Of a stretch of DNA of 64,000 nt, positions 9,738 through 63,931 are shown piece by piece; the first letter of the stretch is position 1; each line of letters begins with the position of its first letter. Below the pieces are notes generated by a model. It saw only the letters and a list, made by a program, of their open reading frames with translations. It searched no databases and had not been told where the DNA came from. The DNA is from Nitrospirales bacterium (GTDB lineage: Bacteria > Nitrospirota > Nitrospiria > Nitrospirales > NS-4): assembly GCA_030648395.1 (NCBI GenBank), contig JAUSHW010000201.1, positions 1,046 through 65,045 on the forward strand, read 5' to 3'. Position numbers and translations under genes: made by a program.

Positions 9738-9746
9738 AGGAAGTTG

Positions 9747-39500: not shown

Positions 39501-42500
39501 AGCACAAGTTTACGCACGTCCCGGCCTGGATTGTCGACTTCCGTCCGGACAGCCCTGCCCGCCCTGGGACGCTCGCGGAGTACAAGAAGCAGCACCCGGA
39601 ACTCAAGTTCGCGCCCCGTAAGCAGCCTGTCTTCTACTCCGCGCTGCAGAAGGTTCTGAGCGAGCGGATGCCCGTCTCCGCCTCGGGTGAGCAGGTGAAG
39701 GGGATCCTGAACGCCCCGGGCGTGAAGCAGGACGAGATTAAATGGTCCGGAGTCCTGGACTACCTCGAGGCGCGGAAGCTGAAGACCATCTCGCGCGACT
39801 CCCTCCTTGCCTGGCTCAAGAAGAACGAGGTCAAGATCGTCGAGGTCATGAAGTCCGGCGAGAGCGCGGAGGATCTGCCGTCGCTGCAAGAGTTTAAACG
39901 CGACTATTACGAATCAGAGATCGTGCCCGAGGATCCGTCGTATATCGAAGAAGAAACAACGCGGCTCCGGGATATGCGGCGCCAGGATCTGGAGATCGAG
40001 GGCGGCTATACGACGGAAGAAATTGAGGACGAGGTTTCCAAGATCGAGTACGAGCAGGACGACTACGCTAGCGAGCAAGAAACCCGGCACCGGACGTACC
40101 CCTTCCGCATTCTCGGACGCGAGGTGGAGTTTAAAGTGAGTGTCTACGACGATGTCGTCCCTATGACAAGCGGGAGGAAAGCAAAATTCCTCGGCGATCT
40201 CAAGAAGGATGGGACGCTCGAAGAGGACGGCTACGGGCCCGCCTTCAACCGGTTCTCTGAGGCCAACGAGGCAGCCTACGAATACTTCGTCGGGAAGGCC
40301 AAGGCACAGGCCGAAGAGAGCGCCCCCAAGTACCCGGGTTCCACGCTCAAGGGGCCGAATACAGATTATCGGGAGTTGCTGCTGACGTTTGAGCCGGCAT
40401 TAGCAAAGACCATCGCCGAGCGCGCAAAGAAACTTCACAATACACTGATGGGCATCCACAATCAGATTGCGGCCGCGAAGGATCCAGGAACGACGAAGAA
40501 ACCCTCTGTTGAAGTGCTGAACCTTCAGCGGGATGCCGATCGTATCCGTCGTGAAATTCAACTTGCGCGCGAGAAAGAGCCGTCAAAATTTACCTCCTCC
40601 CACTGGGACGAGGAGAACATCCTCGCGCACATTCGCTACGACACGCGGACGGACGCGGCCGGGAAGCGGACGCTGTTTATCGAGGAGATCCAGAGCGATT
40701 GGCATCAGAAGGGGCGGGAGGAGGGGTACACAAAGGACACGACAGGCTGGACAGCAAAATCCCTTTCCGAACCAGAGGCGGGATTTACATCATGGGAAAT
40801 TCACGACGCCGCCGGCAACTATATTACGGGAATCGTTGGCGGCAGCGAAGAATCCGCTATTCGCAAAGCCGCAGAAGGCGTCCCCCAGGCCCCCTTCTCC
40901 AAGTCCTGGCACGAGCTCGCGCTCAAGCGGATGCTCCGCCTCGCGGCGGACGAGGGCTACGACCAGCTCGCGTGGACGACCGGGCGGCAGCAGAATGAGC
41001 GGTATCGGCTGTCGAAGTATGTTTCGAGGGTCGTCTATGATAACGGCATCCTCAACGCGAGTGATTTAAGTGGGCGAAAGGTCTTCGCGGAAGAGGTAAG
41101 CGAGAATGATCTTGCCAAGCATATTGGGAAAGAGGCCGCAGAGAAACTTATTGCGATGACTCCCGACGAAGACGGTCTCAGGATTCTCGAAGGCCTCGAC
41201 CTCGAGATCGGCGGCTCGGGCATGGTGGGCTTCTACGACCAGATGCTCCCGCGGTTCCTCGACAAGTACCTCAAACGGTGGGGCGTGACAGTCGGGACGG
41301 CGGTGTTTGATTTTGTGCCAAGTGGCCAGAAAAAGCTCTATAGTACGCCATCACAAAATGCGGCAGGGGTTGCCCACGCCATCCCCATCACAACGGAGAT
41401 GAAGGCCTCCGTCCAGGGCGAGTCCCAGCCGCAGTTCGCGCCGCGCTCGAAGCAGACCCAGACGCCCGAGTTTAAGAAGTGGTTCGGGGACAGCAAGGTG
41501 GTCGACACCCAGGGCTCGCCTTTAGTGGTGTATCACGGGACGACGAACGCGGCCGCTATTGCCCAATTCGAGTTAAGGGGCGAGGCCGCGGCATTTCACT
41601 TTACAGCAGATCCTGCGTACGCGTCTAAATATGCCAAAGGAATTACGAGCGCCGCAAAAGCGGGTAATGAAAGATCTGCCGCGGTGCTCCCTGTTTATTT
41701 GAAAATTGAAAATCCTTTCTTTACATGGAAAGGGACGGACACTTATTTTTTAAGTCCAGAAAAGATCAAGGAACTCGCTAAACATGGTTTTGACGGCGTA
41801 ATTCAAAGCGTATTGCTCGCTCCTCCTAACCCTGTAAACCACGCGAGGGCTGTAGAAACAGCAAGTGAACTTGTCGTCTTCTCCCCCACCCAAATCAAAT
41901 CCGCCACCGGCAACCGTGGCACGTTTGACTCAGAGAATCCCGATATCCGGTTTGCGCCGAGGAAGGCAACGCCGCCGTACGGCCTACGCGAGGATCAGCT
42001 CCCTCATGGTGCAAAGGTGCCGAACGTGGATTGGAATCAGGAAGACCTCGTAGCAGGTATAGGGGAGTTGAGGAGACAGACGCCGAAGACACTTGCAAAG
42101 GGATACGAAACTATTTATTCCGGGATCTACGGTGTCAGAAAAGGTTTTACACCAATCGTCTCTCGCGCGTTTGTTCCTGTCAATCGCGTGCCAAAAGAAC
42201 ATATTTCCTATGAAGACGAGTATATGGATGAGTACGATTGGCAGTCTCTAAAAGACGCGGCGACGCTCCCGCCGGCAACCGTCGTTCTGTTTAATAATGG
42301 CCCGAAATTACTCGAAGACGGTAATCACCGCGTCCGTCATTGGCGTGAAGAAGGGATGACCCATATCCCCGCGTGGATCGTCGACTTCCGCAAAGGCGCC
42401 AAGCCGGTCTTCGCCCCCCGCACCGCGCCCACCTATACCGTCCCCGAGCCGACACGGACCGACAAAGTTCGGCGCGTGCTCCAGGACAAGAATATCGACA

Positions 42501-45082
42501 TTGCGAAGTTCGTCGCGGCCGTTAAGGAGACCGTCGCCGATCTGCACGATGACCTGAATCCCGTCCTGCACGAGGAGATGTTCCACGCCCGCGCGGCCCA
42601 GGCCACGACCGACTTCCTGACCGATGAACTCGAGCCGCTGGTGAAGGACCTCGCCCTGCGCCAGGGGACCCAGGGCGGCCTGAACGCCTACCTGCACGCG
42701 CGCCACGCCGCGGAGGCCAACGCGCGCCTGAAGACGCTCAATCCCAAACTCGAGAAGAACGAGGCCCTCTCGGGCATGTCCGACACGGAGGCGCGGACGA
42801 TCCTCGACGATACCGCGAACGACAAGTACGCCGCCCTTGCGCTCAAGATCGACGCGATCGTCAACAAGACCCGCGACCTCATGGTGAGCTACGGCCTGGA
42901 ATCCGAGGCCCGTGTCGCCGAGTGGCGAACCCTCTACCAGCACTACATCCCGCTTCGGCGCGAGGGGCACGAGGAGGAGGGGATCCCCACCGGCACCGGG
43001 CGCTCCGTCCGCGGCTCGATGGTGAAGGAGCGCCTTGGATCCACCGCCGCGGTGGACGAGATCCTCGGCAATCTCGCCCTGGCGCGCGAGGCCACGATCA
43101 CCCGCGGCGAGAAGATGCGCCCGGTCATTGCAATGGCTGGCCTCCTGATGGCGCACCCCAACAAAGAGATCGCGCACCTCGCGAAGCCGGCGCCGATTAC
43201 CATCATGAATCCGATTACCGGACTACCGGAGGTCCTCCCGGGCGACCTCGGGGACTACAAGGTCCCCCGCGTCCGACGGATCGACCCGGCCACTGGGGTC
43301 GTCAAGGAATTCCCCGATCCCACCTATAAGGGGCGTGACAATGTCGTCAACTTCCGGATCAAGGGCGTCGACTACGCCATTATCTTCAACGAACGCAACG
43401 AGCGCGCGATGGAGATCGCGAAGGCGTTCAAAGATCTCGACACCGCCGCGCTGAATATCTACGTCGCGCAGGTCGCGAAGGTCACCCGCTGGATTGCGTC
43501 CGTGAACACCCAGTACAATCCCATCTTCGGGATCATCAACTTCGTCCGCGACGTGCCCTTTGCCATGCTCACGCTGACGAGCACGCCGCTGCACGGGAAG
43601 CAGGTCGAGGTCCTGGCGAACACCGTCAAACTCATGAGCGGGATCTACCAGGATGCCCGGGCCGTCCGTCGGGGGGAGCACCCAACCTCACCCGCGGCGG
43701 CCATGTGGGAGCGCTTCGAGCACGTCGGCGGACCGACCGGCTACCGGGACCTCTTCACCACCGCCGGGGATCGGGCGAAGGAGATCGAGAAGCTCCTCGA
43801 CCCCTCCACGCTCCGCATGGCCTGGAACGCCGGCGGCGGGAAGGCCATCGCCGACTGGCTCTCGGATTACAACAAGACCATGGAGAACGCCGTCCGCCTG
43901 GGGGTCTTTAAGAGCGCCGTCGACATGGGGATCTCCGACATCCAGGCGGCCAGCTACGCGAAGAACATCACCGTCAACTTTAACAAGAAGGGGCAGATCG
44001 GGGCCTTCCTCGGCGCCCTCTATGCCTTCTTTAACGCCTCCATTCAGGGCGTCGCGCGCATTCACGAGACGCTCTTCGAGAAGGACAGCCTGGCCCTCAG
44101 CGCGATCGGGAAACGCGTCGTCGCCGGTGGCGTCGCCCTCGGCGTCATCCAGACGGTCGTCCTGGCGCTGGCCGGGTTCGACGACCAGGAGCCCCCGGAG
44201 TACATCAAGGAGAAGAACCTCGTCGTCCCGCTCCCGGGCGGGAAATACGTGAACATCCCCTACCCGCTCGGCTTCAACGTCCTCCCCTCGATCGGCCGGC
44301 TGACGATGGAGACGTTCATCTACGGGCGTCCTCTGGACCGGGCCTATAGCCTCGCGGCGACACTCGGCGGGGCCCTCTCGCCGGTCGGCGGGGCCGTCAG
44401 TTGGGCCCAGCTCCTGAGCCCCACCGTGACCGACCCGCTCGTCGCCCTGGGGGAGAACAAGGACTGGACCGGGAAGCCCATCTTCAAGGAAGACCGGGAT
44501 GCCCTGGCGCCCACCCCCGGACATAGCCGCCGGCGGGACACGGCGACCCCCTGGGCCATCTTCCTGTCCCGGGCGATCAACTACCTCAGCGGCGGGACGG
44601 AGTACAAGCCGGGGATTGCCAGCCCGACGCCGGACGCGATCGACTACCTCATCACCCAGGCCACCGGAGGCGTCGGCCGGGAGATCTCCAAGACCGTTCA
44701 GGTAGGCCAGGGACTCGTCACCGGAGAGGACGTCCCGGAGTACAAGGTGCCCCTCTACGGCCGTTTCGTCGGCGCGACCGAGGGCCTGGCGGCCACACGG
44801 GGGCGCTTCTACGAGAACCTCAAGCAAATTAACGCCCACGAGCTTGAAATCAAGGGGCGCCTGAAGGCGCACGAGCCGATCGGGGACTACCGCCTCAAGA
44901 ACCCCCTGACGCGGATGATCGACGCCGGCAATCAGACCGAGCGCGCCGTCCAGGAACTCGTCCGCCAGAAGCACCTCATGGTCAGGCAGGGCGCCTCGGC
45001 CGAGAAGGTCCGCCTCATGGAGGAGCGGATCGGGGCCATCATGGGCCGGTTCAACGCCCAGGTCCAAGCACTTAGTAAATAA
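33527..45082 (+). CDS. giant multi-domain 'polyvalent' virion protein (3,851 aa)
   Basis: Single uninterrupted ORF whose ATG lies immediately after the upstream TAA. Contains HELGH, two DGNHR ParB-like modules, a WFGDSKVVD..VVYHGT module, an IEEIQSDWHQ module, and a C-terminal TM region with PLYGRFVG (PLxRFG-like). It occupies the T7 gp16 / N4 gp50 position. Confidence 0.9.
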   Translation: MGDLNLSAFETPTAEPAEGLNLSAFEPASPPSSSDVLRGATTAIKQLPQLTYGLGAGLMATSQSLKEFVGQKYSGYAPQAGETTFDSDQLVKEYLVGKSRAWGEEIAKETKATDSLVTAYERASEGDYGALVDWMQYGIGYGGVQVLQMLGSAGVGSVFGKAALKEVTAQTAERLVTKASIGLAAESGGKLTGEALTKAAVEQVASKIGQYTALAATATGMEGGEILGGVAEQSVDEGRSLRGDELAKAWGATLAAGALEFVGDKFGLDLVTGKIGKFAGARGRLARGGILGAADAGVESGTEFTQTLVEEAGKGHDPFTLKAVRDAIDAAGLGAIMGGVVGGTSGALTPSAPPSITGTVPPLPKSGTGEEPPPEPPIIPPDAVEAATASIVPPLPGILDLTRERDDAKLIVQEIAERVNHLESIGLGVPNFLRDELEAANERFRNLKAEQATVVEIPTSVLAAPDVASAITQAQAFVDNRPAAPAGENLPFSRSETFQSALESHIGSEAYTEATHAGDQAALIAAVRNATGFDDAGGLPTLHGLPLRAVAPERLPDTADTPGQLTRGQYDAANLFLGLFGKRAVVFEDHPAMAGFVAPEGGDQSIVFLGSRSESHPLAVVAHELGHLLEGTEAYRAFQAVLLENLDPEAKLAARERHTTAKTDLELFNEISADVKGDAMTDPAFMTKLVARMREKLGDEETKVQARTFLDVIRDVIAKFTERIGIRMSDDYLPYITNLEKIHDALAIAVAEAYLKGTTPTAEKGKLKLSERQTGEGAREVVHPEAVEKFSGLASAQRDKPEAAMLTVQMTHGGGVLNPVVEHVGDLTHRMSHHARHGTAYRAEVASKIERALAALTHPYGFEKEHAENLRNNARGWTKEGKPISTADLRKAVHAAMDEYAAEHRKLSVYNLPQWLAREAAVAVGERRWDDAIRRLKELHEIVKSADYDRQALAVNRDKKGTILTFEEIGEVLTDAEKLAQQKVSSEKETILSDNDLTPNGRQDDGKGGGFDLYTTTRELPVLTKNDLYPHAAIPKGGTVSRQTLEASGYRLADDLLNSLSKIQLAPRKHPEHKRTSEGKYVGAPPAVVSPAKLTKLREILKGLAKEGKAGRFWHEKSSHAILDLAEGNRNLAEKIVGLIAIYSPRQGILGNMTSALTAYYQWANGKPITTPGRSGLEPAYRAEAWMHESATEETITGIKRSNFYKNLMRVINPAALGTEAQGVTVDMWIARAMGYFKTTVGKAQYLFTEREIKHLASTLGWEPQQAQAAVWVAVRSRIQAPVERDGVMTTLYEATRKDAVTRGWLERVTNYSKSGQAYTHHKAVDAERGRAFERLLLQRALKLDSVEIDSLDFSDALKQRTAQISWEATPGKTSLILPGIHGATLGQQAEYLAAVDAALRGDYGQDLIAEKLNLAGANTIFGPGAWQGNITVGAQTRTAIGLQTDADGLQRVSDDARALINLYADIRGYTMSQEGVYWAYPFYEETKAKANGVRLLFGRALDTTEMGSLYRAIMDVAGHDEWAPAYTEDGAFILNFKTEDHLAFQKTIKEAVGRLPDELSATMKTFRSDGDARMNDWKESPHGESYRERIGAEGGPDVLQWSADLRQAVVGVNEHFSERYDWGNPGEAYPEAAEVETQQTDVSPSTGHDIRFAPRNFPVAYQRMADEYDAAPVLDKAAIPAWNALRDDTARRYKEILLKVHVERVTGQPYTDATSMIADIAKGSFKVTTDYSEHPVWTVEENVQFRVVHDYLGHFKTGYDFSLYGEQRAYAAHAELLTDPLAKQALKVEVYGQAAAAVSHDGVFQVQKIFLPKPDVRNFDAEWAAQSGGQKMAEERGLNMTGNEYLTRIERARATGIGQGRLPRDIRFAPRDATPPYGLKTLPKGAKVPRVQWDKDELRENEDALRDDYAQTGPNELEHTIYPTVYRAWVPMDDVPRARIADRAQDRAKGGYDWSEYKKTGVFPPVTIQLHPNGVATSLDDGNHRVRYWREHKFTHVPAWIVDFRPDSPARPGTLAEYKKQHPELKFAPRKQPVFYSALQKVLSERMPVSASGEQVKGILNAPGVKQDEIKWSGVLDYLEARKLKTISRDSLLAWLKKNEVKIVEVMKSGESAEDLPSLQEFKRDYYESEIVPEDPSYIEEETTRLRDMRRQDLEIEGGYTTEEIEDEVSKIEYEQDDYASEQETRHRTYPFRILGREVEFKVSVYDDVVPMTSGRKAKFLGDLKKDGTLEEDGYGPAFNRFSEANEAAYEYFVGKAKAQAEESAPKYPGSTLKGPNTDYRELLLTFEPALAKTIAERAKKLHNTLMGIHNQIAAAKDPGTTKKPSVEVLNLQRDADRIRREIQLAREKEPSKFTSSHWDEENILAHIRYDTRTDAAGKRTLFIEEIQSDWHQKGREEGYTKDTTGWTAKSLSEPEAGFTSWEIHDAAGNYITGIVGGSEESAIRKAAEGVPQAPFSKSWHELALKRMLRLAADEGYDQLAWTTGRQQNERYRLSKYVSRVVYDNGILNASDLSGRKVFAEEVSENDLAKHIGKEAAEKLIAMTPDEDGLRILEGLDLEIGGSGMVGFYDQMLPRFLDKYLKRWGVTVGTAVFDFVPSGQKKLYSTPSQNAAGVAHAIPITTEMKASVQGESQPQFAPRSKQTQTPEFKKWFGDSKVVDTQGSPLVVYHGTTNAAAIAQFELRGEAAAFHFTADPAYASKYAKGITSAAKAGNERSAAVLPVYLKIENPFFTWKGTDTYFLSPEKIKELAKHGFDGVIQSVLLAPPNPVNHARAVETASELVVFSPTQIKSATGNRGTFDSENPDIRFAPRKATPPYGLREDQLPHGAKVPNVDWNQEDLVAGIGELRRQTPKTLAKGYETIYSGIYGVRKGFTPIVSRAFVPVNRVPKEHISYEDEYMDEYDWQSLKDAATLPPATVVLFNNGPKLLEDGNHRVRHWREEGMTHIPAWIVDFRKGAKPVFAPRTAPTYTVPEPTRTDKVRRVLQDKNIDIAKFVAAVKETVADLHDDLNPVLHEEMFHARAAQATTDFLTDELEPLVKDLALRQGTQGGLNAYLHARHAAEANARLKTLNPKLEKNEALSGMSDTEARTILDDTANDKYAALALKIDAIVNKTRDLMVSYGLESEARVAEWRTLYQHYIPLRREGHEEEGIPTGTGRSVRGSMVKERLGSTAAVDEILGNLALAREATITRGEKMRPVIAMAGLLMAHPNKEIAHLAKPAPITIMNPITGLPEVLPGDLGDYKVPRVRRIDPATGVVKEFPDPTYKGRDNVVNFRIKGVDYAIIFNERNERAMEIAKAFKDLDTAALNIYVAQVAKVTRWIASVNTQYNPIFGIINFVRDVPFAMLTLTSTPLHGKQVEVLANTVKLMSGIYQDARAVRRGEHPTSPAAAMWERFEHVGGPTGYRDLFTTAGDRAKEIEKLLDPSTLRMAWNAGGGKAIADWLSDYNKTMENAVRLGVFKSAVDMGISDIQAASYAKNITVNFNKKGQIGAFLGALYAFFNASIQGVARIHETLFEKDSLALSAIGKRVVAGGVALGVIQTVVLALAGFDDQEPPEYIKEKNLVVPLPGGKYVNIPYPLGFNVLPSIGRLTMETFIYGRPLDRAYSLAATLGGALSPVGGAVSWAQLLSPTVTDPLVALGENKDWTGKPIFKEDRDALAPTPGHSRRRDTATPWAIFLSRAINYLSGGTEYKPGIASPTPDAIDYLITQATGGVGREISKTVQVGQGLVTGEDVPEYKVPLYGRFVGATEGLAATRGRFYENLKQINAHELEIKGRLKAHEPIGDYRLKNPLTRMIDAGNQTERAVQELVRQKHLMVRQGASAEKVRLMEERIGAIMGRFNAQVQALSK
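35393..35407 (+). other. HExxH zincin motif (HELGH) within the giant ORF
   Basis: Context: SESHPLAVVAHELGHLLEGTEAY. In frame (aa 623-627). Confidence 0.6.
39122..39546 (+). repeat. internal protein-level repeat 1: DIRFAPRxATPPYGL + ParB-like DGNHRVR(Y/H)WRE..H(V/I)PAWIVDFR
   Basis: Collinear with 41942..42391. DDGNHR at 39467..39484. Confidence 0.75.
41453..41935 (+). other. ART-like 'polyvalent' module (TPEFKKWFGDSKVVD...PLVVYHGT) inside the giant ORF
   Basis: This motif string is the hallmark I recall for the ADP-ribosyltransferase-like domain of phage/plasmid polyvalent proteins. The region is visibly more AT-rich than its flanks. Confidence 0.5.
41942..42391 (+). repeat. internal protein-level repeat 2 (PPYGL + ParB-like DGNHR)
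   Basis: PDIRFAPRKATPPYGLREDQLPHGAKVPNVDW ... LEDGNHRVRHWREEGMTHIPAWIVDFR. EDGNHR at 42314..42331. Confidence 0.75.
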
Positions 45083-57459: not shown

Positions 57460-57816
57460 TTAGAGCGCCTTCAGATCGGCGCTGACCGCGTCGTACTGCT
57501 CCGGCTTGAGCTGGCTCCCGAGCGTGACGCCGTGCTTCGCGAGCACCGCCACGACGGCCTCGCGGCCCTTCGCGGCGACGGTGTCCTTGATGAGCTTCCC
57601 CACCGGCGCGTAGGGCGTCTCGGGCGTCTTCGGGGCCTCGGTCTGTGCGGGGGCGGCCTTCGGCTCGTCTTTCTTCTTGCTCTCCCTCTTCGCGGCGGGT
57701 TCCTCCACAGCCTTCGTCGGCAACGACAGCGTCTGGACGATCTCCTGGCCGATCAGCGCGCGCAACTGCGTGCGAACCTCCTCGGCATTTGCTCCTTCAA
57801 CGTGTACGGAAACCAT
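57460..57816 (-). CDS. hypothetical Lys/Ala/Pro-rich protein (118 aa), first gene of the leftward replication operon
   Basis: ORF 57460..57966 trimmed to MVSVHVEGANAEEV. GGAGGG RBS. Confidence 0.55.
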   Translation of the reverse strand: MVSVHVEGANAEEVRTQLRALIGQEIVQTLSLPTKAVEEPAAKRESKKKDEPKAAPAQTEAPKTPETPYAPVGKLIKDTVAAKGREAVVAVLAKHGVTLGSQLKPEQYDAVSADLKAL

Positions 57817-57860
57817 AGGACGGGCCCTCCTGCATAAAAGGTTATTCAACTGTTGGAGGC

Positions 57861-57890
57861 ATCTTAGCATGGCGCGCAGGATTGTGTCAA
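57861..57890 (-). promoter_or_regulatory. sigma70-type promoter TTGACA-N18-TAAGAT (leftward)
   Basis: Reverse complement of tgtcaa (57885..57890) and atctta (57861..57866), about 45 nt upstream of ATG 57816. Confidence 0.5.
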
Positions 57891-57921
57891 GGATTATTTT
57901 CATGATGGGGAGATTTTCGGC

Positions 57922-57950
57922 TTGACTTCCCCCGTCTCCTATGGTAGCAT
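57922..57950 (+). promoter_or_regulatory. sigma70-type promoter TTGACT-N17-TAGCAT (rightward)
   Basis: Upstream of 57961. The same bases read on the minus strand give TGCTACCAT, another copy of the extended -10 family. Confidence 0.45.
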
Positions 57951-57960
57951 CCTGCTCATT

Positions 57961-58155
57961 ATGCACCTCTCCAAACGCAAGATGCTCGGACTGCGGCGGC
58001 TCCGTCGACTCCAGGCCGCTACCGCCATCCTGAGTGCTATGGTTGCTTCGGCGCCAATGTGTGATAGGACTGCTGTAAATAAAGACGCGTGGGCGGGAGT
58101 TGCTTTAGACTTTGCCGACGCCCTTATTATGCGCGTGAAGAAGGAGCCCGCTTGA
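57961..58155 (+). CDS. small protein with signal-peptide-like N-terminus (64 aa)
   Basis: ORF 57922..58155 trimmed to MHLSKRKMLGLRRLRRLQAATAILSAMVASA. Confidence 0.4.
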   Translation: MHLSKRKMLGLRRLRRLQAATAILSAMVASAPMCDRTAVNKDAWAGVALDFADALIMRVKKEPA

Positions 58156-58691
58156 TGATTCGCCCCATCCTCACCGACGGCCATCCACTCTTGCGGAAAG
58201 TCGCACCGCCCGTCAATCTTCTGGAGATCCCCGGGCCGATGATCCAGGGCTTGCTCCGCGACATGATGGAAACCATGCACGCCGCGCACGGCATTGGCCT
58301 CGCGGCGCCGCAGATCGGTTCCCCGCTGCGGCTGGTTGTCATGGGGAACGTAAAGGCCGACGGCGGGGCGCGAGGCTTTCCCGCTCGGGTGCTGATCAAT
58401 CCGGTGCTCCTCTCTCAGACCACGACGATTCTCCAGACCAACCGAGAGGGCTGCCTCTCGGTGCCCGGGTGGTGCGGGGACGTGGCCCGCCCGCTTGGTC
58501 TTGAGGTCCAGTATCTCGATGAGAAGGGGGCCACGCAGCGCGTCAAAATGAATGGCCTCGAGGCGGCCTGCCTGCTGCACGAGGCCGATCACCTCGATGG
58601 GATTCTTTTTATTGATAAGCTCGAGGGGGAGAAGATCGCCCAGCCGCGCCTCGTCGCGCGGCCTGAGTTCGAGAGACCGGAGGGCCAATGA
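58155..58691 (+). CDS. def: peptide deformylase
   Basis: ORF 58089..58691 trimmed to MIRPIL (AAGGAG RBS, TGATG overlap). All three PDF motifs are present: GIGLAAPQIG, EGCLSVPG, HEADHLDG. Confidence 0.9.
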   Translation: MIRPILTDGHPLLRKVAPPVNLLEIPGPMIQGLLRDMMETMHAAHGIGLAAPQIGSPLRLVVMGNVKADGGARGFPARVLINPVLLSQTTTILQTNREGCLSVPGWCGDVARPLGLEVQYLDEKGATQRVKMNGLEAACLLHEADHLDGILFIDKLEGEKIAQPRLVARPEFERPEGQ

Positions 58692-58855
58692 GACATTTTA
58701 AACTGACGCTCCGAAAGGCACTGGATTACATTGAAGAGGCCGTGAACGAGGTCCGCGAGCCACACCAGAAGAGCGCGGAGGAGGTGGATCGCGCCCTGCA
58801 ACGGCTCGACGGATGGATTGCTGGCGTCAGAGATGGCATGCGAGGGCGCGGATGA
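58688..58855 (+). CDS. hypothetical helical mini-protein (55 aa)
   Basis: Hand translation: MRHFKLTLRKALDYIEEAVNEVREPHQKSAEEVDRALQRLDGWIAGVRDGMRGRG. ATGA overlaps at both ends. Confidence 0.5.
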   Translation: MRHFKLTLRKALDYIEEAVNEVREPHQKSAEEVDRALQRLDGWIAGVRDGMRGRG

Positions 58856-59079
58856 GCCGCTCACGGAAACTCACCCTCGGGGCCTACGCCCTGCTCCGGC
58901 GGGGGAATCTGGCCCGCCTCGCACGGGCCCTGGATCTTCCCCCGTCCGTTGTCTCAGCCTGGGCTCATCGGCGCCGGCCGGTCCCGGTGCGGCACTGTCT
59001 CGCGATTGAGCAGCAGACGGCCGGGCTCGTTCGCGCGGAGACGCTCCGGCCGGACGTCTCGTGGCGGAGGACGGCCTGA
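58852..59079 (+). CDS. Cro/YdaS-like HTH DNA-binding protein (75 aa)
   Basis: ORF 58813..59079 trimmed to MSRSRKL. LARALDLPPSVVSAWAHRRRPVPVRHCLAIEQQTAGLVRAETLRPD fits the YdaS/Cro pattern. Confidence 0.65.
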   Translation: MSRSRKLTLGAYALLRRGNLARLARALDLPPSVVSAWAHRRRPVPVRHCLAIEQQTAGLVRAETLRPDVSWRRTA

Positions 59080-59336
59080 TGCCCGAAATAATGAACCCGC
59101 AGGCGTTTGTGGACAAGTGGGGCGAGAACCGCTGGCCTGTAATTAAAACCAAAGAGATGACCGCCGACCTGACCGCCCTGCTCGCCCAGCGCGAGGCGGA
59201 GGTCAGGGAGGCGTGCGCGACGGTGGCGGAGAAGTGCGGCAAGGTTTACTTCAGTGACCCACCACGAATTAATCCTATTGCCGAGTCAATAGCCGCCGCG
59301 ATCCGCAGCCTGACGAGCCGGACGGGAGGGGCGTAA
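59079..59336 (+). CDS. hypothetical protein (85 aa)
   Basis: ORF 59061..59336 trimmed to MPEIMNPQ (TGATG overlap). Confidence 0.5.
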   Translation: MPEIMNPQAFVDKWGENRWPVIKTKEMTADLTALLAQREAEVREACATVAEKCGKVYFSDPPRINPIAESIAAAIRSLTSRTGGA

Positions 59337-59337
59337 G

Positions 59338-59727
59338 GTGATAGAGATTCCTGAAGTTACTCCAGATGTCTATGCCCCTGGAACATGGCAAAGGTATTTG
59401 CATTACACACCCGAACCGGAGTGCAGACCGTATTGGTCTGTGATTGTTTGGTGTAAAGAATGCGGGAACCCAATGAACCTTATTAACCACACGATTGCGG
59501 AAGATGGAGTAGTGACACCCTCCGTAGGACATCCACTCCCTGAAACTTGTGCGTGGCATCCTAATTTGAAATTAGTTGGTTGGAAAGTATTACCAACTCC
59601 CGCCCCTCCAAGTTTATCTACTTGTGAACGCTGTCACAGAACAGCACATTTTATTGGTGGGTGGGGAACATGGTCAGGAGGAAGCGGAATTATTTGCAGT
59701 GAGTGTTTCACTACGAGAGGGGCGTGA
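59338..59727 (+). CDS. Cys/Trp-rich protein in the lower-GC island (129 aa)
   Basis: GTG start after GGGAGGGG. Cys pairs CKECG, CERC and CSEC. Visibly AT-richer codons than its neighbours. Confidence 0.55.
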   Translation: MIEIPEVTPDVYAPGTWQRYLHYTPEPECRPYWSVIVWCKECGNPMNLINHTIAEDGVVTPSVGHPLPETCAWHPNLKLVGWKVLPTPAPPSLSTCERCHRTAHFIGGWGTWSGGSGIICSECFTTRGA

Positions 59728-59879
59728 TGATGAAGTGTAAGGAGTGTGGCAAGCGGGCGTCTATACTGGTGAGTAGGCGTTCTCCGTTTTCTAGGCAATG
59801 GCCGCTATGCCGTAAGGACGCTAACAACGAAACAGTTGTGATGAAATGGACATGGTACGATGGCAAGGAGGCCCCATGA
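59727..59879 (+). CDS. 50-aa CxxC...C mini-protein
   Basis: Hand translation: MMKCKECGKRASILVSRRSPFSRQWPLCRKDANNETVVMKWTWYDGKEAP. TGATG and ATGA overlaps. Confidence 0.4.
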   Translation: MMKCKECGKRASILVSRRSPFSRQWPLCRKDANNETVVMKWTWYDGKEAP

Positions 59880-59986
59880 CGCCGACGCTGACGCGCTTTC
59901 CGTGGTGGGCCTTGGGCGCAGGATTACTCTTTATGGTGGGCCTCGACCGGCTGGCAGGAAAGGTGGTGGGCAGATGGAGAAGCTGA
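59876..59986 (+). CDS. 36-aa single-TM mini-protein
   Basis: Hand translation: MTPTLTRFPWWALGAGLLFMVGLDRLAGKVVGRWRS. ATGA overlap. Confidence 0.35.
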   Translation: MTPTLTRFPWWALGAGLLFMVGLDRLAGKVVGRWRS

Positions 59987-60240
59987 CGCGCTACGTTGGT
60001 ACGCTTCCTAAATGCGGGGGCGTCCATTCAACTCGTACAAGCGATCAGGTGTACGTCCTTTATTCCGACGTGGAGCCGCTGCTGGCCTTTGTCGAGGCGT
60101 GGGATGTGTTTGAAAAATCGTTGACTGATAGAGTGTCAATGCACGAGCAGGGTTTATTGTATGACACCATTCTAGCCGCACGGCGCAGGCTGGAGGAGGC
60201 CGCCCTCCTTGAACGCATCAAGGAATTGGAGAAAGGCTAA
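59974..60240 (+). CDS. hypothetical protein (88 aa)
   Basis: ORF 59860..60240 trimmed to MEKLTRYVG. Confidence 0.5.
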   Translation: MEKLTRYVGTLPKCGGVHSTRTSDQVYVLYSDVEPLLAFVEAWDVFEKSLTDRVSMHEQGLLYDTILAARRRLEEAALLERIKELEKG

Positions 60241-60244
60241 CGAC

Positions 60245-60556
60245 ATGGACGCAGCAGCGACGGCGGCGGTGCGGGCGCGGCTAGAAGATATTGACCAACT
60301 CACGGGCGAGTCCTATGATCTTATTTCTGAAAGTGAGAGGCGAACCAACTATATCAATGCCTGTCGAATTGCAAGAAGCATGGAAGCCGAGCGTAACGCG
60401 CTGGCGCGGCGGGTGACGTGGCTGGAGGAAGGCAAGCAAGCGGCATTGTTTGTAAAGCAACAGCGCGAAAACACATCGGCAGGATCACTTTCAGAAATTG
60501 AAGCGGTGACACATTTACTCGACTGGCTGGCCCGCGAGCCGAAGGAGACGACATGA
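60245..60556 (+). CDS. hypothetical coiled-coil protein (103 aa)
   Basis: ORF 60209..60556 trimmed to MDAAATAAV. GGAGAAAGG RBS. Confidence 0.5.
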   Translation: MDAAATAAVRARLEDIDQLTGESYDLISESERRTNYINACRIARSMEAERNALARRVTWLEEGKQAALFVKQQRENTSAGSLSEIEAVTHLLDWLAREPKETT

Positions 60557-60843
60557 CCCCTAACACGGCGGCGATCCGGGCCGACGCCGACCAGGAGACC
60601 ATTGCGCGGCTGCGGGAGGCACTTAACATTGACAGACTCGTAGATAAATTTCTTGCATGGCCGTTGCCGGAGAGCGTCTGTAGTGATCTCTGCGCCACCA
60701 AGCAAAACTATCCGCACCGCTCAGGTACGAATTTACTGTCTGCTGACGAGGCAAAGAAGATGCTCGAATACTTGTTACGGCAGGCCCTCGGCGGGGAGCT
60801 CTTGACATCCCCCTCCAATCCTGGTATCCTGCCGCCGCAATGA
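60553..60843 (+). CDS. hypothetical protein (96 aa)
   Basis: ORF track. ATGA overlap. Confidence 0.55.
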   Translation: MTPNTAAIRADADQETIARLREALNIDRLVDKFLAWPLPESVCSDLCATKQNYPHRSGTNLLSADEAKKMLEYLLRQALGGELLTSPSNPGILPPQ

Positions 60844-61226
60844 CGCCTGTTACACGCCGCGGGCTGCTGAAGGGACTCCTCGGACTGACCGCCCTGTCGG
60901 CCATCGGGCCGGTACTCCCGGCGGTGTTGCCGGTGGCGGCCGCGGTACCGGCTCTCGCGACGGTCAACGGCGGACTGACGCTTGCGCATCTCAGAAAAAT
61001 TGCGTGCGATCTTCAGGCCAACGCGGCCCCCATGCTGGACGAGGGCTATTTTATCGGGCATTACGAGTCCTTCCGCTTTATCACCGCCAACGAGTTCTAC
61101 GCCCCGCCTCCGCGTGCCGGCGGGCTGCGGTTCACGAAGGACGGCGCCGAGGTGAACCCGCGGGAGTACTTCGGGCCGGATCGCGTGTGGAGATCTACGA
61201 AGGAGCATGCCCTTGACATTCTCTAA
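60840..61226 (+). CDS. Tat-signal protein carrying a major-capsid-protein-like segment (128 aa)
   Basis: N-terminus TRRGLLKGLLGLTALSA...AVPALA is a twin-arginine signal with an AxA site. The following ATVNGGLTLAHLRKIACDLQANAAP matches capsid residues ATVNGGLTLGLLRKITKGLQANHAKP (20700..21779). Confidence 0.6.
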   Translation: MTPVTRRGLLKGLLGLTALSAIGPVLPAVLPVAAAVPALATVNGGLTLAHLRKIACDLQANAAPMLDEGYFIGHYESFRFITANEFYAPPPRAGGLRFTKDGAEVNPREYFGPDRVWRSTKEHALDIL

Positions 61227-61240
61227 ACATGTGGTATACT
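61213..61240 (+). promoter_or_regulatory. strong sigma70-type promoter TTGACA-N16-(TGg)TATACT
   Basis: Overlaps the last codons of 60840..61226. It drives the mini-ORF/terminator unit. Confidence 0.6.
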
Positions 61241-61303
61241 GGATGCTTGCGATCTGGACCCTGGTTTCGGCGCACCGTCTCATCGAACGAAAGGAGGCAC
61301 CCC

Positions 61304-61330
61304 ATGCGTTGCACTCACGAGAGCAACTGA
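61304..61330 (+). CDS. 8-aa leader-type mini-ORF (MRCTHESN)
   Basis: AAAGGAGG RBS 7 nt upstream. Lies between the promoter and the intrinsic terminator. Confidence 0.35.
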   Translation: MRCTHESN

Positions 61331-61371
61331 GCTCCCTTTACAAGTACACTGATACTTCACTAACGGCAACA

Positions 61372-61409
61372 GGGGCCGGCGTTCTCTCGAAGGGCGCCGG
61401 CCTTTTTGT
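61372..61409 (+). terminator. rho-independent terminator
   Basis: GGCCGGCG-13 nt loop-CGCCGGCC followed by TTTTT. Confidence 0.75.
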
Positions 61410-61418
61410 GTGTACGGT

Positions 61419-61616
61419 ATGATACTCCGTCAGGGGTGGCGCCGGCATCGTCTTGGTTACCGCTGGATCTATGTGTTTACCTATTGCCTCAACGGCTTCT
61501 ACGTGAGGCGTACACTCCTGCCGGCTGAGATCCGCGCGGCCAAATTCAATGCCTGGGAGGCCGAGGAGCGGGAGGCCGTCTGTCTTGCTCGGCGGCACTG
61601 TGGGATTCTCTCGTGA
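61419..61616 (+). CDS. hypothetical basic protein (65 aa)
   Basis: ORF 61410..61616 trimmed to MILRQGWRRH. GTGA overlap with the primase start. Confidence 0.45.
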   Translation: MILRQGWRRHRLGYRWIYVFTYCLNGFYVRRTLLPAEIRAAKFNAWEAEEREAVCLARRHCGILS

Positions 61617-63931
61617 GTGACCGCTGGGGAGCCTCCCAAGAAGACTGGACCCACTGGTCGAGGACGCTCGGCCTCACCGAGGACCTGCTCCCGGTCGTCT
61701 GTAATCCCCACGCGCCGCTGCACGCCGCCTCGAAGGTCACCTCCATCGGCAAGCTCCCCTCGCGCTACGTCTCAGGCGGCGCCCTGTGTGGCATCCCGGC
61801 GTGGACGTCACTCCACGCCACCCCGGGGCAGGTCGAGGACTGGGGCCGGGAGCCGGACTATGGGCTCTGCCTCCAGACACGGCGGGTTCGCGCGCTGGAC
61901 GTGGACGTCACCGATCCGGAGCAGGCGGAACAGATTCTCCTCCAGCTCGCGGGTCCTCTTCTCGGCTATCGTCGTACGCGATCGGACTCGAGCAAATTTC
62001 TTCTCCTCTTCAGACTTGACGGAGACTGGGGGAAGCGTACGCTCGAGGTCGAGCACGGCATCATTGAATTCCTCGCCAACGGCCAGCAGTGCGTCGTCGC
62101 CGGTACCCACAAGGACGGCGCGCGCTACGAGTGGACTCCCTCACGGCCGGATTCAATCCCCACGCTGACCGCTGACCAATTCGAGCAGCTCTGGTCGGAC
62201 CTCGTGCTCCTCTTCCTCAAGCCCGGCGGGCAGACGACCGAGGCCCGTGTGCGGCGGGCGCGTGGCGTGCATGATCGTCAGTTACCGACTGACCCCGCGA
62301 CCATCACGATCGGCGATCCGGTCGTGTACTTCCTCGAGCGACGCGGGCTCCTCCTTCCTGACTCGGATGCGGGCCATTGCTATGTCACCTGCCCATGGGC
62401 CTCCGACCATACCGCCGGGGGAGACCCCACGGCCAGTTGCTGGTTCCCTGCGGGGACGGGGTCGTTTGACCAGGGCTGGTATCGGTGCCTTCACGCGCAC
62501 TGCGCCTCGCGCTCACAGATGGACTTCCTCTCGGCGATCGGCTACGCGACGGATGGCTTCGAGGCCCCGGAGGGGGGCCCCTCACGCCTCGGCGGGCCGC
62601 TGGACACGGAGGCTCAGGCCGCGCTGGCGGCCCTGGGGGTGGATCTGGCATCGGACCTGGCGGCCCCGCCGCGGGGCGCCGATCCGGATCCCCTGCCGCC
62701 GTTCGAGCGCGACCTCCAGACCTCCTGGATTCGGTGCGTGGAGCGGAACGTGGTGCTCGCGGTCCGCCGGCCGGATCTCTGCGGCGTGCGGGTGCTCTAC
62801 GATACCTTCACGGACGCGCTCCTGGCCGAGCGCGACGGCGTCCGCCGGCCGTTTCGCGATGAGGACTATACGGCCATCGCGCTGGCGCTCCGGGGGCAGA
62901 TTGGGGGCGTGATGAAGGGCTTCGGGCCGGGGGACATCCCGAAGGAGGCGCTCCGTGCCGCGGTGGCGTTCGTGGGGCGCGAGTCGGCGGTGGACTCGGC
63001 GCAGGAGTGGCTCGCCACGCTCCCGGCGTGGGACGGGGTGCCGCGGGTGGCGGGCTTCTGCACGGACTACCTCGGCTGCCCGGCGTCGGACTATGCCCGG
63101 GCGGTCGGACGGTACTGGTGGACGGCCCAGGCCGGACGGGTGCTCGATCCCGGGTGCCAGGCCGACATGGCCGTCGTGCTGATTGCCGGGCAGGGGACGG
63201 GGAAGACCTCCACGCTGCGGGCCCTCGTCCCCGAGGCGCGGCAGTATGTGGAACTCAATCTGATGGACCGGGACGAGGACCTCTCGCGCCGCATGCGGGG
63301 CGTGCTCGTGGGCGAGATGGCGGAGCTGCGCGGGATCAACAGCCGGGAGATGGAGAGCATTAAGGCCTGGATCAGCCGCCGGGAGGAGAGCTGGGTCCCG
63401 AAGTATAAGGAGTTCGCGACCACGTTCCCCCGGCGCCTGGTCCTCGTGGGGACCTCGAACCAGGAGGAGTTCCTCGCCGACGAGACCGGGAACCGCCGCT
63501 GGCTGCCGATTGTGGTCGGACTGCGGCAGGACGTGGACGCCATCGCGCGGGATCGGGACCAGTTGTGGGCCGAGGGGCGGCTGCTCTTCGAGGTCGGACT
63601 GCTGGACGACGGCATGGGGGTCCTGTGGCGGGACGCGGAGACGCTGGCGAAGCTCGAGCATGAGCAGTTTCGTCTGGTCGATCCCTGGGAGGGGGCGGTT
63701 CGTCAGTGGCTCGCGGAGGGCGGATTGAAGGCGGACCGGCCGGCGGATCGGGAGTGGATCACGGCGGACGACGTCCTCCACGAGGCGATACGTGTTGAAG
63801 ATCGTCAAATCAAGATGGCGGAGTATTTTCGGATTGGTAAAATACTGCATGCGATTGGTTACCAACGCGTGCCAAAACGCATTGACGGCGTCGTTAAGAA
63901 GGTTTGGGTGAAGAAAAGTGGACTTTTGTAA
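61613..63931 (+). CDS. bifunctional primase-polymerase / VirE(D5)-type helicase (772 aa)
   Basis: AEP motifs RALDVDVTD and VVAGTHKDG. Zn-like CPWASDHT...C..HC. Walker A AGQGTGKTS, Walker B LVGEMAEL, and RRWLPIVV typical of VirE/D5_N helicases. Confidence 0.85.
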   Translation: MSDRWGASQEDWTHWSRTLGLTEDLLPVVCNPHAPLHAASKVTSIGKLPSRYVSGGALCGIPAWTSLHATPGQVEDWGREPDYGLCLQTRRVRALDVDVTDPEQAEQILLQLAGPLLGYRRTRSDSSKFLLLFRLDGDWGKRTLEVEHGIIEFLANGQQCVVAGTHKDGARYEWTPSRPDSIPTLTADQFEQLWSDLVLLFLKPGGQTTEARVRRARGVHDRQLPTDPATITIGDPVVYFLERRGLLLPDSDAGHCYVTCPWASDHTAGGDPTASCWFPAGTGSFDQGWYRCLHAHCASRSQMDFLSAIGYATDGFEAPEGGPSRLGGPLDTEAQAALAALGVDLASDLAAPPRGADPDPLPPFERDLQTSWIRCVERNVVLAVRRPDLCGVRVLYDTFTDALLAERDGVRRPFRDEDYTAIALALRGQIGGVMKGFGPGDIPKEALRAAVAFVGRESAVDSAQEWLATLPAWDGVPRVAGFCTDYLGCPASDYARAVGRYWWTAQAGRVLDPGCQADMAVVLIAGQGTGKTSTLRALVPEARQYVELNLMDRDEDLSRRMRGVLVGEMAELRGINSREMESIKAWISRREESWVPKYKEFATTFPRRLVLVGTSNQEEFLADETGNRRWLPIVVGLRQDVDAIARDRDQLWAEGRLLFEVGLLDDGMGVLWRDAETLAKLEHEQFRLVDPWEGAVRQWLAEGGLKADRPADREWITADDVLHEAIRVEDRQIKMAEYFRIGKILHAIGYQRVPKRIDGVVKKVWVKKSGLL

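Follow-up and report, generated by a model that had tools for sequence, protein, structure and literature searches.

In plasmid R1 (CopA/CopT-tap-repA) and in IncB/IncI plasmids (RNAI), an abundant constitutive small RNA limits translation of the replication initiator, and plasmid antisense control often works through a short leader ORF that is coupled to the rep gene. For c4 of phages P1 and P7, Citron and Schuster are said to have shown in 1990 that an antisense RNA blocks the ribosome-binding site of an ORF coupled to the regulated gene. The target of C4 is icd-ant (antirepressor), the outcome is Rho-dependent termination, and C4 itself is processed from its transcript. The CI RNA of phage P4 is also made by processing, and it causes transcription termination at complementary sites upstream and downstream. 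Through this leader-derived RNA, P4 shuts off its replication genes (PMC4825925). IsrK, from the Salmonella prophage Gifsy-1, ends early at a terminator as a short RNA; when transcription reads through, the longer form includes a small ORF whose translation is coupled to that of the following gene. IsrK activates translation, and the downstream gene is an anti-repressor (PMC4825925). In the microcin C operon, the mccA leader holds a 7-codon ORF with ribosome-controlled termination (PMC4231749).

Here we analyse a short RNA unit in the DNA of an uncultivated ~65-kb groundwater phage. The window (the whole 64-kb stretch that was analysed) has no DNA match among known phages, whose primase homologues are at most 41% identical. 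Our data support a conserved promoter-short RNA-terminator unit, predicted from sequence, at the head of the primase operon. The best reading is a riboregulator that acts like IsrK, P4 CI and P1 C4 yet belongs to no Rfam family. Computation on two lineages suggests that this leader-derived RNA may well control primase translation through RNA pairing.

A predicted short RNA unit ahead of the primase

The features of the locus are collected in Table 1. The best sigma-70 match in the window is the promoter at 61213-61240, which scores 11/12 with an extended -10 and was the sole 11/12 site in four scans. An earlier note on this DNA had read it as TTGACA-N16-TGgTATACT. Both elements are where that note put them, but since the TGg (61232-61234) falls within the 16-nt spacer, the layout is actually N13-TGg-TATACT. 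The 8-bp GC hairpin with T5 that had been described is present as the core of a longer stem, in which GGCCGGCG/CGCCGGCC extends to 15 pairs (9 G-C, 4 G-U, loop of 5). All four scans returned this hairpin as the only stem longer than 10 bp in the window; it is by far the strongest, and its region folds with z = -2.85. The RNA upstream of the terminator has no more structure than shuffles (z = +0.15 to +1.7; whole RNA, z = 0.15). Together, promoter and terminator (61213-61407) predict the RNA of about 160 nt that had been proposed, and the same length is predicted in the related phage L031 (transcript ~9245-9405). The unit sits in a stretch that is locally A+T-richer, as had been remarked.

Table 1. 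Features of the unit and its neighbours in the window.
Feature	Position	Strand	Description
128-aa gene	60840-61226	+	twin-arginine-like signal; no family match; carries the -35 in its last codons
-35 hexamer TTGACA	61213-61218	+	within the final codons of the 128-aa gene
Extended -10 TGgTATACT	61232-61240	+	TATACT at 61235-61240; 16-nt spacer to the -35
Predicted primary transcript, ~160 nt	61247-61407	+	start placed ~7 nt past the -10; end taken from the terminator
27-nt block CGAAAGGAGGCACCCCATGCGTTGCAC	61288-61314	+	identical to L031 9285-9311; spans Shine-Dalgarno, ATG and codons 2-4
Shine-Dalgarno AAAGGAGG	61290-61297	+	6 nt 5' of the ATG; kept in L031
Candidate antisense core	61293-61323	+	overlaps the ribosome-binding site and codons 1-7 of the mini-ORF
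8-codon mini-ORF MRCTHESN	ATG 61304 to TGA 61330	+	L031: MRCTSNGN and TAA, equal length and position
A/U-rich spacer	61331-61370	+	little predicted structure; between mini-ORF stop and terminator
Intrinsic terminator	61371-61407	+	15-pair stem 61371-61405, its 3' end running into T5 61403-61407
ORF68	61410-61616	+	GTG 61410, or ATG 61419 (65 aa); no Shine-Dalgarno; GC3 0.70
Putative primase mRNA target	61608-61636	+	-5 to +24 relative to GTG 61613
Primase-helicase, 772 aa	61613-63931	+	Prim-Pol and VapE-like domains

Between promoter and terminator, the AAAGGAGG motif and the 8-aa ORF MRCTHESN were found where the earlier note had placed both (61290-61330). The primase-helicase gene does not follow the unit directly at 61419, as that note had it: the gene there is an ORF of 65-68 codons (61410/61419-61616), and the primase begins at GTG 61613. 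This ORF68 is an orphan that L031 lacks, and its TGA stop overlaps the primase start codon (GTGA). Genes after the terminator have no Shine-Dalgarno sequence.

Conservation of the unit in related phages

L031, whose primase is 72% identical, carries a matching unit with equal order and spacings. Its -35 is TTGACT (9211-9216) and its extended -10 is TGaTATAAT (9230-9238), separated by the same 16-nt spacer. When the two terminators are compared, 96.7% of cells are paired, with 2 pairs changed on both sides and 3 on one side. The flanks of the shared 27-nt block are only ~40-50% identical between the two phages, and a 25-mer of this SD-ATG block has a single copy in the window, where 0.00 are expected. 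The mini-ORF peptides differ at 3 of their 8 positions. The L031 counterpart of the spacer is 36 nt long and A/U-rich, and CCAATTT(T/A)AC is present in it twice.

The window-type unit, defined by its conserved core, is known from these two lineages. It occupies the junction between the 128-aa gene and ORF68 in the window and that between a 79-aa gene and the primase in L031, and it is entirely absent from the close relative L028. Homology of the window to its relatives ends at ~61190, shortly before the -35. A promoter and a very stable hairpin head the primase operon in each of the eight lineages with a unit that were examined (window, L031, L049 and L051-L055), which argues for a position-specific role. 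L052 has an architecturally similar unit, with SD-ATG-CGT-AAG-TAA (peptide MRK) ahead of the terminator. Relatives also carry perfect inverted repeats of great length in the corresponding position, and their downstream operon comprises the primase and a Sigma70_r4-like regulator. The leaders of relatives at 50% identity form a three-way junction whose C-rich loop changes in step with the Shine-Dalgarno context of the gene that follows; this element was not found in the window.

Further copies were sought in sequence collections. A scan of IMG/VR with a 23-mer of the unit gave 0 matches, and a degenerate SD-ATG pattern gave 3, all of them chance gene starts. One JGI metagenome yielded 11 loci, namely 10 ordinary genes starting MRCT and L047, which is the L031 phage again. 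Loci reached through the primase protein in IMG/VR and GTDB were at most 45% identical, and none of them had the unit. The earlier note had also suggested an Rfam scan; run on the window, L031 and six relatives, it gave no relevant family match. With 4227 models at the gathering threshold, the whole window returned just 3 tRNAs. At E <= 10, the sole match in 61000-61800 was to the terminator of isrD (16.9 bits against a gathering value of 37, E = 1.5), and L031 9150-9900 gave SorX at 13.1 bits against 46.6.

Complementarity between the conserved core and the primase start

The core of the unit can pair with the start of the primase mRNA in a predicted duplex of 27 bp (12+1+3+5+6) at -49.0 kcal/mol. 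This duplex ranks first among 12,736 and among 9,480 scanned windows, and in the second of these scans (9,480) it leads the next site by 12 kcal/mol. Shuffling either partner never reached this energy (0/3000; mean -23, sd 3.9), which is also lower than the region-wide minima of 40 shuffled cores. A 12/12 inverted repeat links 61312-61323 with 61608-61619, and the 12-bp helix is formed, on one side, by mini-ORF sequence in which the window and L031 diverge and, on the other, by a primase start context specific to the window. The window core favours its own primase start over 10 other primase start regions of relatives. Some of the complementarity (GGAGG/CCUCC, CCCC/GGGG) consists of motifs that are frequent in G+C-rich coding DNA.

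The intact primase start of L031 (ATG 9833) lies past an inserted endonuclease gene, ~520 nt away. The L031 core is predicted to pair with it at -35.4 kcal/mol, an energy attained by 0/3000 and 2/3000 shuffles. Pairing with the remnant primase start beside the L031 terminator is not significant (-22.7 kcal/mol, rank 2314). In both phages the long-range helix appears in the MFE and centroid folds predicted for the read-through RNA, with a net interaction after opening costs of ~-19 kcal/mol in the window and ~-13 kcal/mol in L031. Significant complementarity to the downstream ribosome-binding region of the same transcript, the mark of a co-oriented antisense RNA, is thus found in the window and in L031. 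The best duplex of the L031 core in its own locus is with a site inside a DUF932 gene, at 16410-16449 on the minus strand (-48.0 kcal/mol), not with the primase. For L052, the mini-ORF against its own primase start was not significant (p ~0.04-0.05), and the helix is absent from the predicted fold.

The only conserved stretch of the predicted RNA is at once the ribosome-binding site with its mini-gene and the primase-start complement, and RNA pairing therefore most likely tunes primase output. From the computed promoter, terminator, conservation and complementarity and their statistics, we infer the following mechanism. Host sigma-70 polymerase would initiate at ~61247 at an autonomous unit, and the majority of transcripts would end at the terminator as the ~160-nt RNA. 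The conserved unstructured segment would have a dual role, as a near-perfect ribosome-binding site with a presumably translated 8-codon ORF and as the complement of the primase mRNA. By occluding the primase translation start, it would set the level or timing of primase synthesis, with repression the most likely direction. The abundant short RNA could act in trans, and the segment could act in cis within the minority of read-through transcripts. The two roles use the same nucleotides, so a ribosome loaded on the mini-ORF would preclude pairing with the primase start, and vice versa. A stand-alone or leader-derived small RNA tied to replication-gene expression, one of the options offered in the earlier note, fits these data.

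Comparison with described leader RNAs

The locus resembles that of IsrK in its predicted output, a short RNA made from a promoter and ended at an intrinsic terminator, with a fraction reading through. As in the IsrK locus, the read-through mRNA has a small ORF coupled to the next gene, here ORF68 with its GTGA overlap onto the primase, and a leader segment is predicted to pair with a ribosome-binding region further down the same mRNA. IsrK in its short form can act in trans on the long form, as we propose here. Unlike IsrK, to which it has no sequence or structure match, the unit precedes a primase rather than an anti-repressor, and its pairing segment coincides with a strong ribosome-binding site and an 8-codon ORF. 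The effect would most likely be repressive, whereas IsrK activates.

The immunity system of P4 (CI, seqA/seqC and the alpha primase-helicase operon) likewise has a constitutive promoter and prematurely terminated leaders before replication/primase genes. As proposed here, its leader-derived RNA controls those genes via pairing on the same transcript. The two differ in that the complementary site here is the primase translation start; no seqA/seqC-type repeats and no Rfam match were found. Like c4 of P1 and P7, the candidate antisense RNA shares strand and transcript with its target, which lies downstream, and it would block a ribosome-binding site to act on a downstream translationally coupled gene. 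Unlike C4, it would be ended by a terminator instead of being processed out, and it has no Rfam C4 match. Plasmid antisense RNAs come from the opposite strand, whereas the regulator proposed here is encoded on the same strand and owes its complementarity to an inverted repeat.

With mccA the unit shares a promoter, a strong Shine-Dalgarno sequence, an ORF of 7-8 codons and an intrinsic terminator, which are predicted to yield an abundant short RNA and minor read-through. Like MccA, both 8-mers (window and L031) end in Asn, which gives the succession of short ORF, Asn and terminator. Unlike mccA, the locus has no conserved upstream sequence able to attenuate the terminator, and the L052 mini-ORF ends in Lys. 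Nor did an enzyme of the MccB/ThiF type turn up, next to the unit or elsewhere, among 31 non-structural ORFs of the window and a set of 19 ORFs, outside the structural-gene block at 8-45 kb, or in the L028 and L031 loci according to their precomputed Pfam lists. A microcin-C precursor, prompted by the C-terminal Asn and the terminator, was rejected on the lack of MccB and the Lys of L052.

Alternative explanations for the unit

Trans-acting sRNAs usually consist of an A/U-rich part and, behind it, a terminator that ends in a U tail, and the unit is built likewise. It is possible, though unlikely, that it is a moron-like mobile sRNA cassette that has other host or phage mRNA targets or insulates the primase operon, the primase complementarity being incidental or a relic. 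The unit has its own promoter and terminator and varies in presence and position, as phage morons do, with an RNA or mini-ORF instead of a protein gene as cargo. Mobility would account for the different junctions in the window and L031, the absence from L028 and the break in relatives' homology right before the -35, and a DUF932 gene, rather than the primase, is the strongest predicted partner of the L031 core. However, the top partner of the window core is the start codon of the primase in the same operon, the next-but-one gene (0/3000 shuffles), and the position at the primase-operon head in 8/8 unit-bearing lineages also argues against a mobile cassette. A MITE with ends marked by the 12-nt inverted repeat was rejected: the enclosed terminator is homologous to that of L031, which has no ORF68.

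The earlier note had favoured a leader-peptide-controlled attenuator. On this reading, translation of the 8-codon ORF would decide terminator formation and gate read-through, in the manner of the trp/his/pyrBI leaders or, induced by the ribosome, of mccA. This now looks improbable. The window and L031 do each have a strong Shine-Dalgarno sequence and an ORF of conserved length ahead of a strong terminator, L052 has its SD-ATG-CGT-AAG-TAA, an intrinsic terminator (15-pair stem and T5) stands between the leader ORF and the regulated genes, and the 7-codon ORF of mccA is a documented precedent (PMC4231749). In the window, 61254-61263 could base-pair with the terminator's 5' arm while the 3' arm has yet to be made. 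However, this candidate antiterminator is missing from L031, and the search for alternative pairings that had been suggested, run on both phages, found none common to them. Mutually exclusive antiterminator and terminator hairpins chosen by ribosome position were not found, and leader folding was no better than that of shuffles. Moreover, the mini-ORF stop lies 40 nt (window) or 36 nt (L031) from the stem, beyond the reach of a terminating ribosome. The peptides (MRCTHESN and MRCTSNGN) hold no repeated regulatory codons and none that would report a metabolite or tRNA; they differ at three of eight residues, and L052 encodes just MRK. With no conserved antiterminator, classical leader-peptide attenuation is unsupported.

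The overlapping 71-aa ORF at 61207-61422, which the earlier note had raised as a possible real product, is very unlikely to be one. As a genuine small protein, possibly made from upstream read-through transcripts only, it would suppress termination by its translation and couple the next gene. In both phages this frame runs through the unit without a stop (71 aa in the window; 58 aa in L031, from ATG 9237); the probability that a given frame is open is 0.15-0.18 per sequence and ~0.03-0.05 for both. In addition, the end of the long ORF overlaps the next start codon in each phage (ATGA in the window, ATGTCTAA in L031), the genes past the terminator lack a Shine-Dalgarno sequence, and a gene caller annotated the ORF on the identical contig L056. 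However, among 5.8 billion protein clusters it matches only itself, on that identical contig, and it has no Pfam or PHROG match. The long-ORF peptides have in common only RKEAPHALH, encoded by the nucleotide-identical block with zero synonymous changes, and GLF from the terminator tail. The long ORF has a GC3 of 0.60 (window) and 0.46 (L031), lower than the 0.66-0.84 of most neighbouring genes, and the candidate starts of the 71-aa ORF fall within the -35 or -10 elements or 1 nt past the Shine-Dalgarno sequence. The compensatory changes preserve the terminator hairpin and not the peptide, and in L031 the gene caller placed no gene at this position. As seen on L056, a gene caller can misannotate such an RNA unit as an orphan "hypothetical protein".

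At the lambda late promoter, a strong promoter is followed ~160 nt on by a strong terminator, before the operon, and the unit shows this layout ahead of the primase operon. A gate like lambda PR'-6S RNA-tR', worked by an antitermination protein, at which a constitutive promoter would make the short terminated RNA until a phage antiterminator opened the operon of the primase and sigma-r4-like regulator, would suit the downstream genes of the relatives (primase and Sigma70_r4-like regulator) but is highly improbable. No Q-like or N-like protein was detected, and the gene just upstream encodes the 128-aa protein without family match; Pfam and PHROG showed no Q-family antiterminator gene by the promoter among the upstream genes. 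On reading the sequence, the first 25 transcribed bases have no obvious -10-like repeat. Such a gate would also leave the identical 27-nt SD-ATG block and the primase-start complementarity unexplained.

Replication-origin transcription, in which the promoter and short RNA would serve to activate an origin or to prime it, like T4 ori(uvsY) or the T7 primary origin, and the hairpin would act as DNA, is scarcely credible: the unit does lie directly upstream of a replication initiator-type gene in an A+T-richer stretch, and relatives have their long, perfect inverted repeats in the corresponding position, but the hairpin stems include G-U pairs that exist only on the transcribed strand, no iterons were found, GC skew marks no origin at the unit and is uninformative as an origin marker because it follows gene orientation, and the conserved SD-ATG block is left unexplained.

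Implications

Relative to the logic of P4 CI, P1 C4 and Gifsy-1 IsrK, the new element in the proposed riboregulator would be an antisense seed that is at the same time the strong ribosome-binding site of a mini-gene. It is conceivable, if doubtful, that the RNA senses translation, with ribosome occupancy of the leader deciding whether the primase start is masked, and that it belongs to a wider, undescribed class of leader RNAs in front of the primase genes across this phage group. If so, phage DNA replication would be coupled to the translational capacity of the host. The unit and the primase start fit a directly testable construct of ~600 bp, and the region that opens the primase operon in this phage group may be a good hunting ground for new riboregulators. 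If the pairing model is correct, an uncultivated environmental phage would control its replication genes at this point by RNA alone.

A conserved small transcription unit lies upstream of the primase gene

The segment ahead of the primase is a real, conserved small transcription unit, and we infer all aspects of its expression. It lies at the end of a rightward run of small genes and is directly followed by an ORF of 65-68 codons and then by the primase. The earlier note described a promoter, an eight-codon mini-ORF (MRCTHESN) and an intrinsic terminator here, and every one of these elements is present. The promoter (TTGACA, 16 nt, TATACT with TGg) is the sole 11/12 match in the window, and its -35 hexamer is contained in the 3' end of the 128-aa gene that precedes it. 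The hairpin and T-tail were also found, but the stem has 15 pairs rather than the 8 bp described; together with its T5 tail it stands far above every other terminator-like site in the window. The primase had been taken for the next gene, but ORF68 comes first. Among 5.8 billion protein clusters ORF68 had no homologue but itself, and it had no Pfam or PHROG match; it may be a coupling ORF, not a functional protein. An unrelated 68-aa ORF occupies the same position in L052, a relative whose primase is ~50% identical.

A homologous unit is present in the related phage L031 at 9211-9405 (primase 72% identical; the same phage was seen as L032 and L047). There the promoter reads TTGACT, 16 nt, TGaTATAAT, and the leader is equal in length to that of the window. 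The two share 27 identical nucleotides, CGAAAGGAGGCACCCCATGCGTTGCAC, between near-random flanks. The L031 mini-ORF again has eight codons (MRCTSNGN; stop TAA vs TGA in the window), followed by an A/U-rich spacer of 36 nt and a terminator of 14 pairs plus T6. When the two terminators were aligned, 96.7% of pair cells were standard pairs, with both sides changed in two pairs and one side in three; this signal was lost in a control in which the partners were slid by one column. The unit occupies different junctions: in L031 it is flanked by a 79-aa gene and the primase, in the window by the 128-aa gene and ORF68. It is absent from the close relative L028 (75% identical), searches of IMG/VR and JGI metagenomes returned no further copies, and no Rfam family matches it. 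The homologous unit is carried by two lineages only.

The last ~10 codons of the 128-aa protein are unlike those of L028 and L031 exactly from the beginning of the unit promoter, with homology stopping at ~61190. Downstream of the unit in L031 (9406-9836), an Endonuclease VII-type ORF (9561-9836; PF02945, E=5e-16) lies between two copies of the primase 5' end. It has an 11/12 promoter of its own (9500-9529), and its stop overlaps the ATG (9833) of the intact primase. The original primase start survives as a 30-codon remnant adjoining the terminator. The endonuclease ORF looks like the insertion of a free-standing homing endonuclease.

Genomic context

The window covers about 64 kb of a tailed-phage genome of roughly 65 kb. 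It encodes a DUF2800/PD-(D/E)XK nuclease, an Enc34-type ssDNA-binding protein, an SNF2 helicase, a peptide deformylase, a YdaS/Cro-like regulator and a Prim-Pol plus VapE-type primase-helicase. Its nearest relatives come from Hainich groundwater metagenomes (contigs of 59-66 kb; primase identities of 70-79%); window ~8.1-9.7 kb gives a 74% alignment to the L031 terminase region, and the Logan contig L056 has the same sequence as window 55758-61899. Genes run leftward left of ~57.4 kb and rightward from ~57.9 kb; both runs begin at a divergent promoter-like pair, which is also kept in L028 (6489-6578) and L031 (5781-5880). The 54-64 kb stretch is rich in promoter-like sites (8 found, 1.5 expected).

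Three tRNA genes (Met-CAT, Gly-TCC and Thr-CGT; 7551-7955, +) lie directly upstream of the part aligning to the L031 terminase gene. Elsewhere, a single ORF of 3851 aa fills 33527-45082 (+), and tandem paralogues of 193 and 195 aa (132-713 and 717-1304, -) share 76% identity and have no Pfam match.

Locations of features (window coordinates unless a relative is named)
Feature	Location	Remarks
Small transcription unit	61213-61407	mini-ORF 61304-61330
Divergent promoter-like pair, extended -10	57861-57890 (-), 57922-57950 (+)	between leftward replication/recombination genes and rightward deformylase-Cro operon
Peptide deformylase	58089-58691	PF01327, E=2e-44; gene 2 of rightward early operon; kept in L028, L031
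128-aa protein	60840-61226	twin-arginine-like signal MTPVTRRGLLKGLLGL...; homologues in L028, L031
ORF68	61410-61616	start GTG 61410 or ATG 61419; no SD; GC3 0.70 (moderate); GTGA overlap with primase start
Primase-helicase	61613-63931	start GTG 61613
Three-way-junction elements	L049 3266-3370; L051 3103-3197; L052 1086-1177; L053 2150-2249; L054 113-218; L055 80-173
TGGCGAGAGGAG start context	L049 3375-3395, 3660-3684, 3848-3870; L053 2262-2282; L054 225-245, 645-665, 1055-1075

The core of the predicted short RNA is complementary to the primase start

In a repeat search, 61312-61323 (CACTCACGAGAG, mini-ORF codons 3-7) was complementary at 12/12 positions to 61608-61619, which covers both the stop of ORF68 and the GTG of the primase. 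With RNAduplex, 61293-61323 and 61608-61636 form 27 bp at -49.0 kcal/mol, the best of the 12,736 windows obtained by scanning the whole stretch on both strands. When the 33-nt core was scanned across 24 kb, the primase-start duplex led the next site by 12 kcal/mol. Dinucleotide shuffling of either partner never reached its energy (0/3000; mean -23, sd 3.9), and the minima found across the region with 40 shuffled cores were all weaker (mean -39.8, min -46.3); some of the motifs that pair occur often in G+C-rich coding DNA. The 12-bp helix joins the window-specific part of the mini-ORF to a window-specific primase context (GTG AGT vs ATG TCT), and the SD GGAGGC pairs with the Ala-Ser codons GCC TCC, where the L031 remnant has GCC AGC.

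The L031 core pairs with its intact primase start (ATG 9833) at -35.4 kcal/mol, an energy reached by 0/3000 and 2/3000 shuffles, and weakly with the remnant start next to the terminator. For the window and L031 alike, both the MFE and the centroid fold predicted for the read-through RNA contain the long-range helix, and net interaction after opening energies is about -19 and -13 kcal/mol, respectively. Against ten further primase start regions of relatives, the window core gave -22 to -42 kcal/mol vs -49 with its own. The strongest partner in the L031 locus is inside a DUF932 gene ((-)16410-16449, codons ~29-42; ~28 bp, -48.0 kcal/mol). This pairing involves the core with its lineage-specific part and is stronger than every one of the 40 shuffled-core minima; the site may be another target, or the match may be due to chance. 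The window has no DUF932 gene.

Function of the unit

Riboregulation of primase translation is the best supported function for the unit, and we consider it about evenly balanced between right and wrong. Host RNA polymerase would yield mostly a terminated 160-nt RNA, whose accessible core would mask the primase start in trans and, on read-through transcripts, also in cis. Translation of ORF68, ending inside the helix, would open it, as would ribosome loading on the mini-ORF. P1 c4 and plasmid CopA are among the analogues of such a unit. Its nearest documented parallels are IsrK of Gifsy-1, a short RNA with a read-through mRNA and a small coupled ORF, and P4 CI, which shuts off P4 replication genes (PMC4825925). 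By sequence or structure, the unit is a member of none of these systems.

The earlier note's label of attenuator is only partly right; stop-to-stem distance, pairing and structure all depart from a classical leader-peptide attenuator. The mini-ORF ends 36-40 nt ahead of the terminator stem, an antiterminator search found no alternative pairing of a terminator arm common to the window and L031, and the RNA 5' of the terminator has, if anything, less structure than its shuffled versions.

We also considered the overlapping 71-aa ORF (61207-61422) as the product. In the window and L031 alike, its frame stays open through the unit and ends over the next start codon, and the chance of both frames being open is about 0.03-0.05. 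However, the two peptides share just nine residues from the nucleotide-identical block and GLF from the terminator tail, and GC3 is 0.60 (window) and 0.46 (L031) vs 0.66-0.84 in most neighbouring genes. Its candidate starts sit within the promoter hexamers, it has no Pfam or PHROG match, and in 5.8 billion protein clusters it matches only its own sequence, from the identical contig L056. The 71-aa ORF is very probably non-coding, although its frame may undergo pass-through translation from upstream transcripts, and a unit of this kind can be mis-called as an orphan protein.

A microcin-C-like reading, with a 7-8-codon ORF ending in Asn and then a terminator (PMC4231749), was rejected: no MccB-type enzyme was found in the non-structural ORFs of the window (outside the 8-45 kb structural block) or in the L028 and L031 loci.

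Leaders of primase operons in relatives

In six relatives with primases ~50% identical (L049, L051-L055), a sigma-70-like promoter followed by an extremely stable three-way-junction hairpin heads the primase operon. These elements have free energies of -62 to -78 kcal/mol (z about -5 to -10 against shuffles, on complete elements where run). Their P1 has about 21-26 perfect or nearly perfect pairs, and its sequence is wholly different between members while pairing is kept. The P3 loop reads UCCCC. The P2 loop, which is C-rich, shows complementarity to the Shine-Dalgarno context of the following gene, in three versions that co-vary. Both loops are complementary to the motif (C/T)TGGCGAGAGGAG-N6-9-ATG, a near-identical start context of several genes in these relatives. 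The element has no Rfam match and is not present in the window. The L052 leader additionally carries SD-ATG-CGT-AAG-TAA and a T5 tail, and its pairing with the primase start is not significant.

In L024 (5664-6000), a more distant relative whose primase has 36% identity, a promoter-like site and a small ORF precede a perfect ~34-bp inverted repeat that lies directly ahead of the primase start. In relatives, the primase is followed by a gene for a 114-148-aa protein with a Sigma70_r4-like helix-turn-helix (L031 12362-12808; L028 12753-13184; L033 2627-2971), and the L031 copy matches phrog_36, a transcriptional regulator. A copy in the window is not visible because the window stops 69 nt past the primase. 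In the relatives this gene would share the primase transcript, and hence the same gate.

Given the promoter and leader-hairpin pattern in the six relatives with ~50% primase identity, a promoter, a structured leader and start-site complementarity seem to recur in this group as the head of the primase operon, with the unit in the window as one variant.
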